Source: Podarcis cretensis (lineage: Eukaryota). From it: a DNA stretch of 64,000 nt. Position 1 is the stretch's first letter; each line of letters begins with the position of its first letter. The position numbers and the translations under genes are program-made. Below the pieces are notes generated by a model. That model was given only the letters and a program-made list of their open reading frames with translations. It made no database searches and was not told where the DNA came from. Positions 37,314 through 60,525 of the stretch are shown here, one piece after another. The stretch is from the NCBI GenBank assembly GCA_951804945.1, contig OX638149.1, forward strand, positions 77,376,001 through 77,440,000, read 5' to 3'.

Positions 37314-40300
37314 ATGTATGCATTTAGAATGTTTCAGTCCAACTGATCTCAATAGGAACTAAGCAGCCTAACTAAAAAGGATTGCAATTTGAGTTTCTCT
37401 TTCAAGCCAGACATGCAGTAAGTGGAGAATATCTCTCTGCACCAATGGCATATCTGTACCAACATTATTAGTATGAGAAGTCACTGCAAGATACCAATGA
37501 GAAAGATCACAGAGTTTTGCCTAAAATGTGTTTGAAACCTGTTCAGTGTACCATTTTTTAATGGTAGTTTTTGGACTCAATCCCCAGGTCTGTGCTGCCA
37601 CAGTAGAATATGGTCCCTGTCACCCGCAAATAAAAAAGCATTATGTATATATATAGATCTGTGAAGTTGACCAAGGTGCTTTAAAGACCTTTTGTTTACA
37701 TATTTTTCTTAAATATTAAGTTCCTTTGCATTAACAGATAAGTCCTCAGGACAAAGACTGAACTAGCAAGTGATGCTAGGATCCCACTCTAGTTATCCTT
37801 TTATATCTAATTGTTCTAGAATGTGTATGGTTAGAGACATGTGAACTACTACAATGTGGCAAATGCTTCTCCAGTTTCTTTGAAGTTTTCTTCCCCTGTG
37901 AAAGAGGCTTCCATTTTTCTGTCTCATTCTCAGGGCACAAGAAAAATAATTTCTTTTGAATTTTGGTGGGTATTGAGATTTTGAGCTAACTTTATTATTG
38001 CAAGGTAGCGGAGGTTGGTACGTGTAAACCTTTCTGTAGCACTCTGCAATCTCCCCAGCTGCCTGTGCTTCCTAATCTGAAAAAGGCTCATGGGAGGAGT
38101 TATCTCATAATGTCTTCTCCTGAGCTTTAACTGAAGCATGGACACCCGGGAAGGCTGCTGGAGTGCAAACACCACTGGTGAGATGATTTGTGGAATGAAA
38201 GAAAGGACACCTAAAAATATCCCTTGGCCACTGCAAAAGTAAGGTGAGTACAGTGAAAACACGGCACCCAAACAATAATAATTTCACAGATATGTTCCAT
38301 CTGATCCATTTTCACATGTAATTTATTTTCTCAATAACTGATGGGAAGGATAAAGCTGATTAGCCATATCTGGTCATTCAATACACATGGCGACAGTTGT
38401 GCGGAGTGGGAGACGACTGCTGTGCAGAACTTCCCCTGTCATTGTGTCCTCAACAGCCCATTCCCTGTTGTCCATACGGTGGGAATAATGCCTGCAGAGG
38501 GGATGCTCATAGGCTCCCTGCCCCCAATTTTTGGTTCTAGCTCATGGAGGGGGCATATGTGCAATGAGCAAACTTTAAACATGCTCACCAACATGAAGAC
38601 AGACAGCAGGAGGGAGGTCCTGACTGAGTTGTAATGGTAGGGCCAGGGCCAGTAGGTATGGCTCTGCTCTCCTGCTCCACACCATTATAATTGCCCAAAC
38701 AAGGCAACTGGAAGCTGACTTTAAAAAACACACACATGAAAATGTTTTGGATGGAGGTGCCTGTTTAATGTTTGTAAAGGTTAAAATATTATGCACAATT
38801 TGGATTATTATCAATTTTTTCTTCTTAAATACATGTACTGCTATACAGAATGCTAAAAAGCAGATGGAGTCATGCTGCTTTACACCAGAAGGGGATATGG
38901 GCTTATCCATTTAATTTCTATGAGCTTATCTAGCCTTTCCCACAAATAAAATGATACACATTACCTAGACACGTCAAGGTATAATATCCAGTCCTCAGAA
39001 CTGTTAAACGAATTAGATTCATTAAAAGATGCAGCAACAGTGTAAGGAAGCACATTTATGCAACATTTCAATCATGGGACCACTAAGGGCTCTTCTGCAA
39101 CGGAGACATCTTGCTCTCAGAGCAAAAACAATACAGAACTTTAGAGTGGCCACAGAGCATAAAGGCACTGACGATTGAAATAAAAACGCAGTTCATTATT
39201 TTTTACAACTTTTATTATGTTTACTGCAGGGTGCCATCCAATTGAACTCATTAATTCAGCAATTATATTGGAAAGGGGGAAAAGGCCTTAGGCTTTGAGT
39301 TGCATCCAAACTGCCTACTAAGAATGCCTTTACTTCTACCCGGCAGTTCTTAAAGAGAGAGCGAGGCACAGAGAAAGGCAGCACATTCACAAAGGATCTC
39401 ACACAAAAAGAAGGGGAGAAAGAAGGAAGAGAGAATATGGTGGAAAAGAAAGAAAAGGATCCCATTAAGTCCCTTCCACCACTCTTTACTGCCCTGACTG
39501 CTGTTGCATCAGGGTTGCACTACTCAGTTTTCACACTTCAAACTGGCAAGGGCCATATCACCATCTCCAGTTAAGAGATCTTCTCGGATCAAAATTTAAT
39601 CTAGAGCTCATTATTATTTCACTCTGTGCCTTAACCAATATAAGATCATTTCAGCAGCCAAGAAAGCAGCAATCTGGAACGTAGTAGAAAATGCTGTGCA
39701 AATTACGGAGGATTATTTTGCACTAAAAGGGAATCTCTGGAGAAATGTTCACAGGCAAAGTACCCCCAAAAGGCATTTAGTCCTATGTAATTCTTCAATG
39801 ACATTTTTGTTAAAATTACTTTGGGTCTAATGCAATTGAGAAAACACATTATTTCTGAATGGCTACTGTATTTCCTGTGTAGCCCTTTCCGAACTGTTAT
39901 AGAAACTTCCATCCCTACACCAGCTTCCACCTTCTACTGTATGAGTTACTTCCTACTAGGCTCCAAAGAAAGTCAGCAAGGTCAGCAGTTCACTGTGACT
40001 TTGAACAATATATGAAGTCAAGACACTGCTTAAGTTTTCCAGGCTGTTTGCTCTATTGACCCCAAAGAAAGACACAGGGTCCAGTGTATGTAAGATTGCT
40101 TGAAAAAGCTATTCACTAAAGCCTATGGAAAGGAGTATGTTAAATACATGAAGAATTGGATGTTGGTTTTCCTTTTTAAGACTTTTCCTATGAAGTGAGG
40201 GTGGAGAGGAATGCACTGAAGGACTGAAAAAAATTATGCACTAGGTTTTGTTTTCTTAAAAATCCTTATCAGACAAACAACCCATTTGTTTTCTTGAGCA

Positions 40301-42269: not shown

Positions 42270-42822
42270 AAGTAGTCTACTGGGGGAGAGAGATGTATGA
42301 ATAAAGACATATTTCCTAATGATCACCCATGTGAGAAGAGGTCTTCTGTGAAAATTTATATAATAAAATTCCATAGGTGTACTCCCTTAAGTCAACGGTG
42401 CTTTGCAGCTTGTGCACCTTGGTAAATAATTAGTGACAACACTATATGATGGGAGTTGTAGCCCTGACAAACCTCTGCATTACACTTAGCTCTTGCTTCT
42501 CAGTGGGCTCCATCTTCCATCAAGCATCACAAACACTATTATGACTTGCAGAAGCCTAACTAGGTTTTCCTGCTGAGAAAATTTAAAATTGGTTTTCCAA
42601 GCTCAGGGTCAGGGAAAAAAGGGGGAATGAAGTTCATATGGTAACTGACACACACTGGAAGAATTGCAACATGTTCATTGTTTGGTTAACAGCAGTGAAA
42701 CAGCAACTTTCAAATTTCCTTATATACTCTCTGTCTTTGCTATCTACTAACCAACCACTCTTTACACTGATATGTACTTCTACCTGCCAACCTAACACTG
42801 CCGCATTTTGAGGTCAATGTAC

Positions 42823-43030
42823 CTTGCAATTTCCTGCGATGGAAACGTGGAGATCCCAGGAAGCTGTTCTTGATCGAGTTGAGCCGTGTTCTCCAGGGCA
42901 TTCCTCCAATGCTGGGGCTGGATGGTGGCGTAGGGTTGGGTGTGCCTGCTGGGCTCTCCTTTGGCGTATGGACAGGTGTCCCCTTGGGGGTAGGGAGGGG
43001 ACTGCCCCTTGGAGAGGGGTGAGGGGTGAC
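42823..43030 (-). CDS. BRSK2: BRSK2 208-nt proline-rich exon: [69 protein letters not shown]
   Basis: atacag| and |gtacat; lies within ORF 42740..43276; near-identical to recalled BRSK2. Confidence 0.97.
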
Positions 43031-43435
43031 CTGTATGATGGGGATAGATTTGGTGCTTGGGTCAGTACTAGAAGGGAGCAACCTAACAGGAGACATAGGG
43101 TTGGTTTGCACGGTAGGAACAGCCAGCTGCGGGCTAAACCCAGGAGCAGGTGGACGGCCCTGAGTGTTCTGTGCAGGAGAATTTGGGGAAGGAGGGACTG
43201 TAGCATTGCTAGAGGGCAGGGGATTGGATTTGGTAGACTGGAGTGGTTTTTCAGCCAATCTGCTCTTGGATGGCAAAGTCTGTGTCTTTGGATTGGGTTG
43301 AAGTGCTGGCTTTGGCTGGAGAACATGTCCGGGCCTGGAAGCATTCCTACAAGCATCGGAGTCCAGGGAGACTTGGGGGCGGGGGGTGAAAGGGAGGTCA
43401 GGAGTCTGAGGGGGGATGAAAAATTTTCTGATAGG
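43031..43435 (-). CDS. BRSK2: Putative 405-nt in-frame 5' extension of the proline-rich exon via an upstream alternative acceptor (135 aa, PIRKFFIPP...KSIPIIQ)
   Basis: Acceptor tgtgtatcttgtag| at 43436-43437; exactly 405 nt, phase 0, no stop codons; preceded by a 230-nt AG-free zone. Confidence 0.75.
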
Positions 43436-45898
43436 CTACAAGATACACACAGAGAAAGTACCCATGCATTTCAAGAAAAGCAAAACGCACACGCACATAC
43501 GCACAAAGTGGGTGAATAGAGAAATAAAGCCCATTTGAGTTGCAGTTGTGAGCCACATCACAAGGAGATCAGAGTTATGGAGGTGAGGGTGAAGGAGGTG
43601 GGGGGTTAGGGAATTGCAAAGAAACAAAAAACAAACACAAACAAAAAACAAAAAGACATGCAGTTAGCTGGGAACACAGCATAGTCAACAACAGCAGCAG
43701 TGGCGGTAGTGAAAACAACAGTTTTGTCACAAGCTTCATCATATTAACCAACCATGTGTCAGCAAATAAAAAAACCACAGAGCAAAAACTAACATGAAGG
43801 AAAAGAAAGTAAAAAACTAAAAGGGTGGGTGAGGGAGGGGAAGCAGCAAGAGAGAGCAAGAGAGGGCGAGAGAGAAAAGGCCATACCCCTGAGCTGTTCT
43901 GACTGTCTCACAGATAGAGAGAGAGAGAAGACCAGGACTGAAGGGAGGTGGGGAAGGGGAAGGAAGCATCATTCAAGCCACAGGGGAAGCTGACATGTAA
44001 GCATGTAAGGCTGAGTGTGCCCTCTCTCCCAGCTCAAAACGTCTACCACAATCAAAAACAGCAAGGAAATGCAGATCAAAATAACATGTGTGCAGCAGGT
44101 AATGATAGAAGCACACAGATTACTACACACATCGACTCTCCTCAGTCAAAGCACCACAAGTTTCAGTAACATGGAGAGAGGGTGTGAGTGAGGCTGAGGA
44201 GGGGGAAAGCCTCTATCATTTCATCACTATTCCTTTCCTGGCTGTCCACCCAGTTTTCTCTGGCAGGCTTTACTATATGACATCTTAACAGCTCATGGAA
44301 CCATGGGCCAGTTTGGGCTTCAAATGACGGCCACTTTAAGTAAAATACCCCAAGGGTCACCAAAGAAGGTTTGCTTTCTAAGTGCCCCTATTACATCTAA
44401 GTCCTCCCGTCAACAGACAGTCTTATACTTTTAAAAAACAAAAGAAAAAAACATTTCTCAGTTTTTATGACACAGAACCAGAATTCCATTCTGTGGCTGA
44501 TCATTGTGTTTTATGCAGTAACCCCCCCAAAATAAATAAATAAATAAATGCACAGTTCATAATCAGCCATAAATGAAGTCAGAGAAGGGGATTATGTTGT
44601 TTTGTAAAACAACGACAAAACTTAACTAGCAAGTGTTAGATTCAAGAACAGTCCAAGAAAAAACTTTAAAATAGAAATTCAATACACTCAGGGAACAAAA
44701 TGCAAAAAAGAATACTGTTAGAATAAAAGTATTTTTTTTAAAAAAATGCAGAACATATTCATTTCATAGAGCATGGATTAGGAAAAAAGTAACAATGAAA
44801 TTGTATTTACTGTTCATTTGTGAATGAGTGCAAGCCCATTAGAAGAACCACAAATGTGTAACAATGTATTGCCCTGCAGTTTGGGCAATTAACTTATATA
44901 AGAAGTGAAAATTGCATAAAACTGTGATAATTGCATATAACTGTATGTAAGAACAGAAGCTGAATTGACTAAGAACAGAAGAAGTGTAAATGAACTGGTT
45001 CCCTGCCTGCATCGTGTGTGTGTGTGTGTCTGTGCAGGTGTCCATAACTCTTTGTGTAACAGAGGGTGGGGGAACGTGTGTATGCCTGTAGGTGTAGTGA
45101 GGATAGATGCTGTTTGTGTGTGCTTTGTATGGTGGTGAGTGTGCATGTGTGGAATGTATGTCTGTGGTGTGTGCATGTAGAAATATGCATTGGCCACATC
45201 CATTATTGGCATGCATCCCTTAGAGAAGTACCTGACTTTCAGCACTACCCTTGAGCCAACATTATTTTAGCCACCCGTGAGTTAAAACATATATTTAGAC
45301 AAGCTATTGCCTGTTTTTTTTTAAAAAAAGAACCAATCAAGCTTTGGCTTGCCCAAGGACTAACAAAAAAGGGCCTGTTCAAGCAGACTCTCTAAGACTG
45401 CACAATTTCTTACTTCTTCGGAATGATTCTCTTTCTGCCCCTCAAATCCAAGCGACTTTCAGCTTCCTTACTGGAACATTCTAATCCAACTCTGTATGAT
45501 TCTTGTTCAGACTAGAGTTCATTGTTTTTCCAGCTTTCTTCAGCTGTGCTATTCAGTCCCAAAGTAGCTCTAGCTGTTATGGTTCAGTGCCTCACCATGG
45601 GCTTGCAATAAGCAGCAGATGCTTTCTTTATTGTATGATAAACTCTCTTAACAGGGTTATATACGTTGGCATCATGTTAGGCCACAATGATACCTTAGGT
45701 GGCAACGATGCCAGAAGCACAGGCAGCCCTGCAGAAGGACCCTATCCCAACATTCACAAACAGCAAGCTGTGCTTTATAGCTGCCCCACATCCTTAGCTA
45801 ACAAAACCACCCTTCAAAATGGGGGAAGAGATATTAGATGTCACCGAGCTCACATGAGAGAGCAGTTATAAACCATGACCCCAAATAATCCCACTTAC

Positions 45899-45959
45899 CC
45901 TTGGACTGCTGAGTGGGCTGGTCGACAGGCCAGAGGAAGCTCCACTGATTGAGCGAGAC
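45899..45959 (-). CDS. BRSK2: BRSK2 61-nt exon: (R)SRSISGASSGLSTSPLSSPR
   Basis: ctcag| and |gtaagt; translation matches the recalled BRSK2 sequence; phase 2 to 0. Confidence 0.97.
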
Positions 45960-51900: not shown

Positions 51901-54299
51901 CCCTCAGTGTAAGGATAAGGTAGTTTTGTTAGTGGGCCAAGCCAGACATTTAAAAATAAAATAAAATGTAAAAGCAGCTGGGGGGGGAGGGGGTTGAGGA
52001 TAACTCTTCCCTCCTGCATTATTATCCTGGTCTATGTTGCCCCCTCCAAAGATGCTATATGTTCTTTGAGGGGGAAATATAGATTCCAATATAGTATTTG
52101 TAAGCGTTCCCCCACTGGACGAATAGCAGCTGGAAGGATTTTAGCTGGGAAGATGATAGGAGGAAAAAAAAGGTTAACTGCTCTTCCCCACCACAGTGAC
52201 CTTGATTCAGTTCAGCTCCCTTCTCCAAGCTGGTTTTAATATTTACCTTTTCAAAAACAAATGTAAAAGAAAAAAAATTATAGGAGATCTGATCACAGTT
52301 GCCAAGATGTCATATTGAGATTTGCCCTCACTATGTACTAGGCCTCTAAGATGCATGTGAAGTCAGGGCAAGCTTTTTCTCCCCCTCCCTAACAAACGCA
52401 CACACAAACATTGTTGTATATATTTTTTTCCTCCTGTAAGTTTTCCCCCCTGTAACACAGTTTCATGATAAATAATATTTATACTGTGATCATTAAAAGA
52501 AACTTCTCTACCCAGAAGAAAACAACAGGTCCCACAACAGGTATAATCCAAAACTGGAGCTTACCCCAATGCGTCAGCACTTGTCATCCTTGGCAGTGGG
52601 GAATAAATAGAGGAGAAGGAGAGAGAAAGAAAGGGACGTGGAAGCAGGTGGAGAAAAGAGTACGAAAAGCAGAGTGAAATACTGTTCGGAGAACTACATG
52701 GTCATAATTATTGCCACAGGCATCTGCTGCTGATGGAAGCACCAGTGGGGAATTACGCATGGGAAGGGGGGGGGGTTCATTTCCTAAACAAATATTTCCA
52801 TATAGCTCATAATCATAGAAGAAGTTTGCATCTAAGATTATGGGGGCAGACACATCAAGTGTAAACGTGAAAAATAAAACATTGCTTGCCCACCCTCATT
52901 AAGCCAGTCTGTGGAGTTAGCAGTCCAGATCTGATTTGCGGTTGTTTTTATTTATGGCAAATAATCAGATTTTGCACAGTGGGCCGTACAGAAAAGGATG
53001 TGGATCTTCCTCCATTTTGCTCATGTAACATTCTCCTGCCTAGTGATGTCCAGCTAGGAATACCCTTTTCCACTGTGTATTATATCTATACTTTATATGT
53101 AGTGTTAAATGCACTGATAATTAAGACCAATATTTCTGAGTGGGTATGAGGCTCGGATGAACAAAGCTACAAGTGAAGGATGTAACTCACTGGGAGTTTC
53201 TCCTGTTCTGCTGAAATGTATAAAAACATATATGTATTGCCTTTCATGGCTGCTATTCATCTGAGTGAGACTCAGGTAGAAATCCTGAGTAGGTTGTGTT
53301 CAAAGTTGCAACTCTACTTTAATTCTGGCTGAAAGGACCTTCAACTTTTTCCAAAATAGATAAAAATCTATTTTTATTAAATTAAAATTAAAACCAGGGG
53401 TTCTCTGCCTAAAAACAGTGGAAAATAAATGCACAATATAAAATAAATGCAGCCTTAAGCACAAGCTATTAAAGAGATGTTAACTGTTTCTCTGTCCTAC
53501 TACAAATTATAACACTGCTAAGTTACATTTCTACCCTGGTTTTCATTTTAATGTTGCTCAAGTCACATCACACTTGTGATGGGCAAGCAGAAATCTGTAG
53601 ATGTATTGTGGAATAAACTTGTATGATTATTATTCATTTTTTCCCCATATCCCAATTTTGTCTCCCTCTTCCCAACTTCTGTAGGGATCATTTTTGAAAG
53701 CTTTCATTTAAGTCTTCATCTCCTTTTAAACCAGGTACTGTGCATCGTTGGTTGGTTGCTTGCCCCACCAACCAAGTCATCTAACTTTCACTAGGAGGCT
53801 GTCATATAAACAAAAGAGCCTGTTGGTTAAGCTAATCTCAAACAACATGCCAATTTCCTATGGGAAACTTTAAAGGACTCGAGTGCAAAACACTAGATAC
53901 ACCAAAGAATGGCCTTTCCTCGTGTTTCTGAAGTATATTTCCAAAGTTTGCTCAGCATTGAGACTGTGCAACATGGAAGCTGTAAAGAAATACTATGTCT
54001 TAGACAACAATTAAATAATGTCCCTTCCAACTCCACAGTTCTACCTAATTGTATGAAAACATGTTGATTGCCATAGGATATTCAAACTACTTCCTCTTTC
54101 TGCTTTAGGAGACTCATCTCCACAGCAAGCCTCTTCTGTTCTGGCAGTGGAAATTTACTGCCCTATCCTAACATGCACTCTTGGGCCATAAGCCAGAAAC
54201 AGCAGCTTAGAAGACACACAGAAGGTGAAATTGCTCTCCCTCAAGCTGATCCCGTATTCTGCTTCTGAAATAGAGTCTGATAAAGCATCCAGTGAACTG

Positions 54300-60459: not shown

Positions 60460-60525
60460 CTTTCTTCTTTGTTGAATTTGGGATTGGCGTCACAGATATC
60501 CAGGCTTTTACTGAACATTGTTTTA
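60460..60525 (-). CDS. BRSK2: BRSK2 66-nt alternative cassette exon: (S)KTMFSKSLDICDANPKFNKEE(R)
   Basis: Flanked by ...gccatag| and |gtataa; symmetric phase 2/2. Resembles the mammalian BRSK2 optional insert SKAMFSKSLDIAEAHPQFSKEDR (recalled). Confidence 0.9.

Follow-up and report, generated by a model that had tools for sequence, protein, structure and literature searches.

The locus of the brain kinase BRSK2 in Podarcis cretensis raises the question of whether the 405 nt preceding the textbook 3' splice site of a regulatory-linker exon belong to the intron or form an optional part of the protein, and what such a part might do. The window analysed here, a whole stretch of 64,000 nt, carries the 3' part of lizard BRSK2 on the minus strand, with exons matching the linker, AIS and KA1 in order and on one strand. 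Using three lizard BRSK2 proteins as tblastn queries, the main exons matched Podarcis muralis BRSK2 at 93-100%, and KA1_BRSK and UBA_BRSK domains are present in the orthologue. In the Podarcis protein, UBA covers residues 300-342 and KA1 residues 659-771, and the insert lies between them; by subtraction, the linker measures 310 residues with the insert and 175 without it. With a probability of roughly 60%, the sequence comparisons point to an upstream acceptor through which 135 residues are added in frame, an ancestral part of the linker shared with BRSK1, so that splicing would toggle a phospho-dependent docking core.

The upstream BRSK2 exon (45899..45959, minus strand, as are all features below) ends at 45899 in a phase-0 donor, AGG/GTAAGT. 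The shared exon body (42823..43030, VTPHPSP…RRKLQ) has 208 nt, or 613 nt including the extension, with its donor at 42822. Between 43435 and 43031 lie 135 stop-free codons, 405 nt in frame with both flanking exon parts, coding for a Pro/Ser/Thr/Gln-rich segment for which a Pfam search returned 0 families. The translation is identical to the peptide given in a first-pass annotation, whose description of a stop-free, in-frame extension starting at a good phase-0 acceptor was accurate. The distal acceptor, A1 (43436..43458), consists of a polypyrimidine tract and TAG with no other AG within 43 nt. The sequence ...ctttctctgtgtgtatcttgTAG precedes the extension, and its TAG is an in-frame stop; the frame thus opens exactly at A1, with 0 open codons upstream. 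AG pairs at 43436 and 43031, spaced 405 nt apart, share a single donor upstream and a single donor downstream. The proximal acceptor, A3 (43031..43053, …tctatccccatcataCAG), which also codes for KSIPIIQ, yields the short textbook form seen among annotated proteins. By pyrimidine content, a crude measure of acceptor quality, the distal acceptor (75%) looks at least equal to the textbook one (65%). A further in-frame acceptor, A2 (43406..43428, ...tttttcatcccccctCAG), is nested 30 nt inside the extension, at 43405, where it also codes for KFFIPPQ.

Shuffling the bases of the 405 nt left this frame free of stops in 296 of 20000 trials (1.5%), and of 62294 further minus-strand stretches of 405 nt in the window, 36 were also stop-free (0.06%). 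Read in the +1 frame, the extension (43033-43434) is likewise without a stop over 134 codons, a likely consequence of C-rich codons. Openness alone is therefore modest evidence, and it is conservation that settles the reality of the insert. A retained intron or a repeat was rejected, as the frame begins exactly at an acceptor and 43031-43435 holds no tandem repeat. A TGCATG hexamer, of the RBFOX type, is found 33 nt upstream of A1 (43463..43468) and is a possible regulator; no clear branch-point motif was found near it. The hexamer occurs three times in the 2463-nt intron (43463-43468, 43657-43662 and 45210-45215), where ~1.1 would be expected from the window rate.

Other optional exons were seen in the window. 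A 36-nt exon (38965-39000), present in a gecko model and missing in Podarcis X6, adds ~12 residues (SEDWILYLDVSR) immediately before the AIS, and by its position is a more direct candidate than the insert for retuning autoinhibition. A 24-nt microexon (52565-52588) with an AAG acceptor and a GTAAG donor codes for MTSADALG and is found in a gecko model. A 66-nt linker exon (60460-60525, KTMFSKSLDI…) is optional too, and from fish to human it is included in only some of the isoforms.

Searching with the insert identified it in 62 of 275 candidate proteins, all BRSK2 or unnamed BRSK-domain proteins, at identities of 41-97% from sharks to a bat. Identity is 87-97% in lizards and a snake, mostly 87-89% in birds and a turtle, 74% in a caecilian, 66% in the axolotl and 64% in the koala. 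It falls to 53-58% in sharks, 52-57% in sturgeon, gar and bichir, 53% in the one bat and 41-47% in early-branching teleosts. Among the 60 proteins with both anchors, SPLSSPR is joined directly to P-x-R-[KR] in 55, matching the predicted junction 45899->43435; in four of the others the insert begins ten residues further on, and in one much further on. A second search with the bat insert found it in 72 of 1898 candidates, spanning primates, rodents, carnivores, ungulates, afrotherians and an anteater. The 15 members listed of the 41 in the human cluster all carry 122 residues, and in human NP_001427594.1 (isoform 6) and NP_001427595.1 (isoform 7) these 122 residues follow R429/R451. The NP_ prefix denotes a curated RefSeq record. 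Across 34 species the insert measures 108-157 residues. Five long BRSK2-type mammalian models with the insert (P0151, P0171, P0179, P0186 and P0188) are labelled BRSK1 by their sources, which is probably misnaming.

The long isoform is already catalogued, and its existence is not new. The earlier proposal of a long form made through an upstream acceptor, possibly already in automated models, is borne out by the 62 protein models; the word "hidden" does not survive them, nor the curated human isoforms 6 and 7. "Ancestral or non-mammalian" holds in its first half, from sharks to mammals, and fails in its second, given eutherian, marsupial and curated human records. Absence from the canonical human protein is true of the MANE form only, since isoforms 6 and 7 carry the 122 residues. 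A lizard-specific exonisation is ruled out by the presence of the insert in sharks through mammals. The cross-vertebrate protein search, which by its nature cannot reveal a species with a broken frame, did not return the stops or frameshifts in orthologous regions that had been named as grounds for doubt. A literature search found no study of the long isoform, which is weak evidence of absence as subscription literature is poorly covered.

The short form is also widely annotated. Among the 120 matches listed of 2411 in a search with the constant start of the linker, 91 rows were new, and 84 of the 87 with both anchors were short. Short forms among these matches come from Pogona (X23), chicken (X15), crocodile, gharial, two rays, bichir and a mormyrid; the MANE human transcript and the rat Swiss-Prot entry are short as well. 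Long and short models coexist within chicken (X1/X5 and X15), Pogona (X2 and X23), bichir and human, a coexistence that rests on gene models built from RNA and homology, in which projection by homology is possible. Starts of the A2 type, ten residues later, appear in four of the 15 listed bichir-cluster models and in four other models. From the gene models of other species we infer that splicing in this lizard draws on both acceptors, and its sequence suggests that A2 may be used too. The spread of the two forms makes it most likely that the exon has an alternative 3' splice site dating back to the first jawed vertebrates.

Conservation within the insert is uneven. Mean identity to 34 other species, measured on protein sequences and thus not separating nucleotide-level from protein-level constraint, is by block 0.81 (residues 1-10), 0.56, 0.81 (46-74, around the core), 0.38, 0.61 and 0.79 (123-135). 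The conserved ends are at the same time the two inner acceptor sequences, and this double duty probably accounts for part of their conservation. The central block contains a core of 23 residues (43220..43288, insert residues 50-72) in which T53-x-P55 and S70-x-P72 keep a constant distance. Both [KR]TQTLP and the second SxP occur in 35/35 species, always 23 residues from end to end with no indel, and K/R exchanges occur within the core. The conserved element of the insert, judged from these alignments, is this [KR]TQTLP...SxP core and not the PxxP motifs.

The segment was also sought in the paralogue. In a full-length search the motif was found in five of 148 new representatives, all fish; none of the invertebrate SAD representatives among the 148 has it, and no lamprey or amphioxus was identified among them. 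Two of the fish proteins, catfish P0402 and toothfish P0366, both unnamed ab initio models, cluster with rat KIAA1811, which we take to be BRSK1, with support of 98/96 in a 23-row tree that left out the variable linker; the BRSK2 side of this tree has support of only 67/91. Both fish proteins show KTQTLPSK after the SPLSSPR junction, as in BRSK2. In P0402 this continues as KTQTLPSK…LQSMKSLP with the core spacing of BRSK2, and TKSI…Q precedes VTP, whereas in P0366 the core's second half is missing. A core profile scored 21.6 bits in P0402 and 20.1 bits in P0366, against shuffle maxima of 9.4 and 11.0 (0/2000 each). The whole-insert profile was weaker than the core profile, giving E=1.7 for the catfish and E=0.0019 for the toothfish among 151 proteins. 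The rat KIAA1811 model, P0345, is frameshifted after the junction, and its tail fits KTQTLPS when read in an alternative frame, one that also yields an 11-residue stretch (49/2000 shuffles). The motif match and the tree indicate that the segment likely predates the BRSK1/BRSK2 duplication, and that the 23-residue core is likely common to BRSK1. Two BRSK1-clade proteins from fish, P0402 and P0342, resemble BRSK2 in having a Gln before VTP, which hints that the inner CAG acceptor may also be older than the duplication.

In the mechanism that we favour, acceptor choice would include or remove a docking motif in the UBA-AIS linker. The segment would have been present before the split of BRSK1 and BRSK2 and have become optional in BRSK2, the longer tether from UBA to AIS being a side effect. 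Long BRSK2 would thereby acquire localisation or regulatory input of the BRSK1 kind. K-T-Q-T-L-P and K-S-x-P, 17 residues apart, resemble two pS/pT-x-P sites for a 14-3-3 dimer. The mode I consensus of 14-3-3 is R-S-x-pS/pT-x-P; a 14-3-3-type [RK]xx[ST]xP is present at the first site in 35/35 species, and the second is an SxP without a basic residue at -3. That the core is a protein-binding motif of some kind seems to us somewhat more likely than not, and that its partner is 14-3-3 rather less likely than not. A literature search found no report of 14-3-3 or any other partner binding the insert segment, and in the available part of PMC3205853 BRSKs act as kinases for a 14-3-3 client and not as clients. 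An EB1 motif at KSIP was rejected on comparison with the SxIP consensus, as its first position is Lys.

Several other readings have to be weighed against docking. The insert might work by added proline-directed (CDK/ERK-type) sites that strengthen linker-mediated inhibition, in keeping with Lilley, who in 2013 reportedly described SAD-A as inhibited via its linker by proline-directed action. The first-pass annotation had counted six S/T-P sites and several PxxP motifs in the lizard insert, and our count agrees (six, at residues 11, 17, 83, 86, 101 and 115, and seven PxxP). Ray-finned fishes have 6-11 S/T-P per insert. Across 34 species, however, the six lizard sites are kept in 16, 13, 0, 6, 11 and 18, the best of them, residue 115, in 18/34, so that no conserved phospho-cluster was found; mammals have 0-4, with one in human and 0 in the tenrec. 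The shared linker moreover already holds 18 S/T-P without the insert (23 less the insert's 5 in Podarcis, 19 less its 1 in human). This makes the proline-directed explanation improbable. A little less so, though still unlikely, is that the insert is a disordered spacer which lengthens the UBA-AIS tether and weakens AIS autoinhibition in cis, or that the core binds the kinase-UBA unit. Its position between UBA and KA1, the growth of the linker from 175 to 310 residues and the retained length of 108-157 residues agree with a spacer, and Wu et al. leave open what these linkers do (PMC4686854), but a pure spacer leaves an invariant, indel-free core common to the paralogue unexplained. The earlier suggestion that the insert retunes autoinhibition or adds binding sites is thus weakly supported as to retuning by S/T-P sites, which are unconserved, and fares better as to binding, via the core and not PxxP.

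TQT is the anchor of ligands of the dynein light chain LC8 (DYNLL1/2), and as TQT is found in 35/35 species within a low-complexity linker, it could serve as an LC8 site that dimerises the long kinase. The position three before the Gln is usually K/R in LC8 ligands, but in BRSK2 it is an invariant Pro (P479), so that [KR]xTQT does not occur, and LC8 binding would account for neither the invariant L-P nor the core's second half. Among literature listings naming both BRSK2 and LC8 genes, no such interaction was found, and we give this reading a rather poor chance. The least probable account, to which we give very little weight, is that the long form arises at a low level as a by-product, has no function of its own and owes the preservation of its sequence to splicing signals. 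Both conserved ends are indeed acceptor sequences, the MANE human and Swiss-Prot rat forms are short, and change is faster in eutherians (the bat insert is 53% identical). Against this, the frame is open and the central peptide invariant, with K/R exchanges, in all 35 jawed-vertebrate species, and the core is present in the paralogue. An indel-free block of 23 residues with two S/T-x-P 17 apart fits a two-site phospho-dependent partner better than it fits LC8, a spacer or proline-directed sites. In bioRxiv 10.1101/832279, deletion of the proline-rich region in short BRSK2 abolished NRF2 repression; the constructs used were short. With the role of the UBA-AIS linker open (PMC4686854), the invariant core offers a precise target for mutagenesis.

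The two acceptors may also bear on a human variant. In the available portion of PMC13743746, c.1288-2A>G was reported in two of 52 cases, with out-of-frame skipping predicted, and was classed pathogenic under the null assumption of PVS1; no patient RNA test for it was found in that portion, and the words "isoform" and "proline" are absent from the main text. Subtracting the insert from the numbering of isoform 7 reproduces R429, V430, P434, N461, S467, G472 and V473, and this match places c.1288-2A>G in the AG of the short acceptor, which is the last Gln codon of the insert. An intact upstream human acceptor lies 366 nt away, the length of the human extension. By sequence, the variant would destroy only the short acceptor, and could force an in-frame long form (Gln-to-Arg) instead of exon skipping. 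Against this, the same portion of PMC13743746 gives a SpliceAI acceptor gain of only 0.08 (search distance unstated) and co-segregation at PP1 supporting. The combined proposal, in which a pre-split splice switch toggles an unrecognised 23-residue docking motif that makes BRSK2 BRSK1-like and c.1288-2A>G forces the in-frame long isoform, is tentative and in our view rather doubtful. If it is true, the class of c.1288-2A>G needs review, or the ratio of long to short forms itself matters for brain development. Under the MANE transcript, a variant falling within the human extension of 366 nt would count as intronic. The exon treated in PMC12519161 is BRSK2 exon 19, a different one from the insert exon.

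The closest known counterparts are human BRSK2 isoforms 6 and 7 and Podarcis muralis X1 and X6, which have the insertion point (SPLSSPR/P…IQ/VTPHPSP) and the core found in the window; the X6 insert is 97% identical to that of the window. The human insert differs in having 122 residues, more Pro and a single S/T-P, and in lacking the Gln whose codon forms A2. The short form of BRSK2/SAD-A (MANE NM_001256627.2, rat Swiss-Prot and the mouse construct of PDB 4YOM) conserves kinase, UBA, AIS and KA1 and uses the acceptor equivalent to 43030, but the entire segment is missing. In the linker of BRSK1/SAD-B (fish P0402 and P0366, rat P0345), the first 35-40 residues are unrelated to the BRSK2 insert. 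The BRSK2 core may also be compared with the tandem mode I sites that 14-3-3 binds in kinase linkers: it has two S/T-x-P, 17 residues from each other within a low-complexity linker, and K/R stands at -3 of the first. It departs from them at the second S-x-P, where -3 holds no basic residue.
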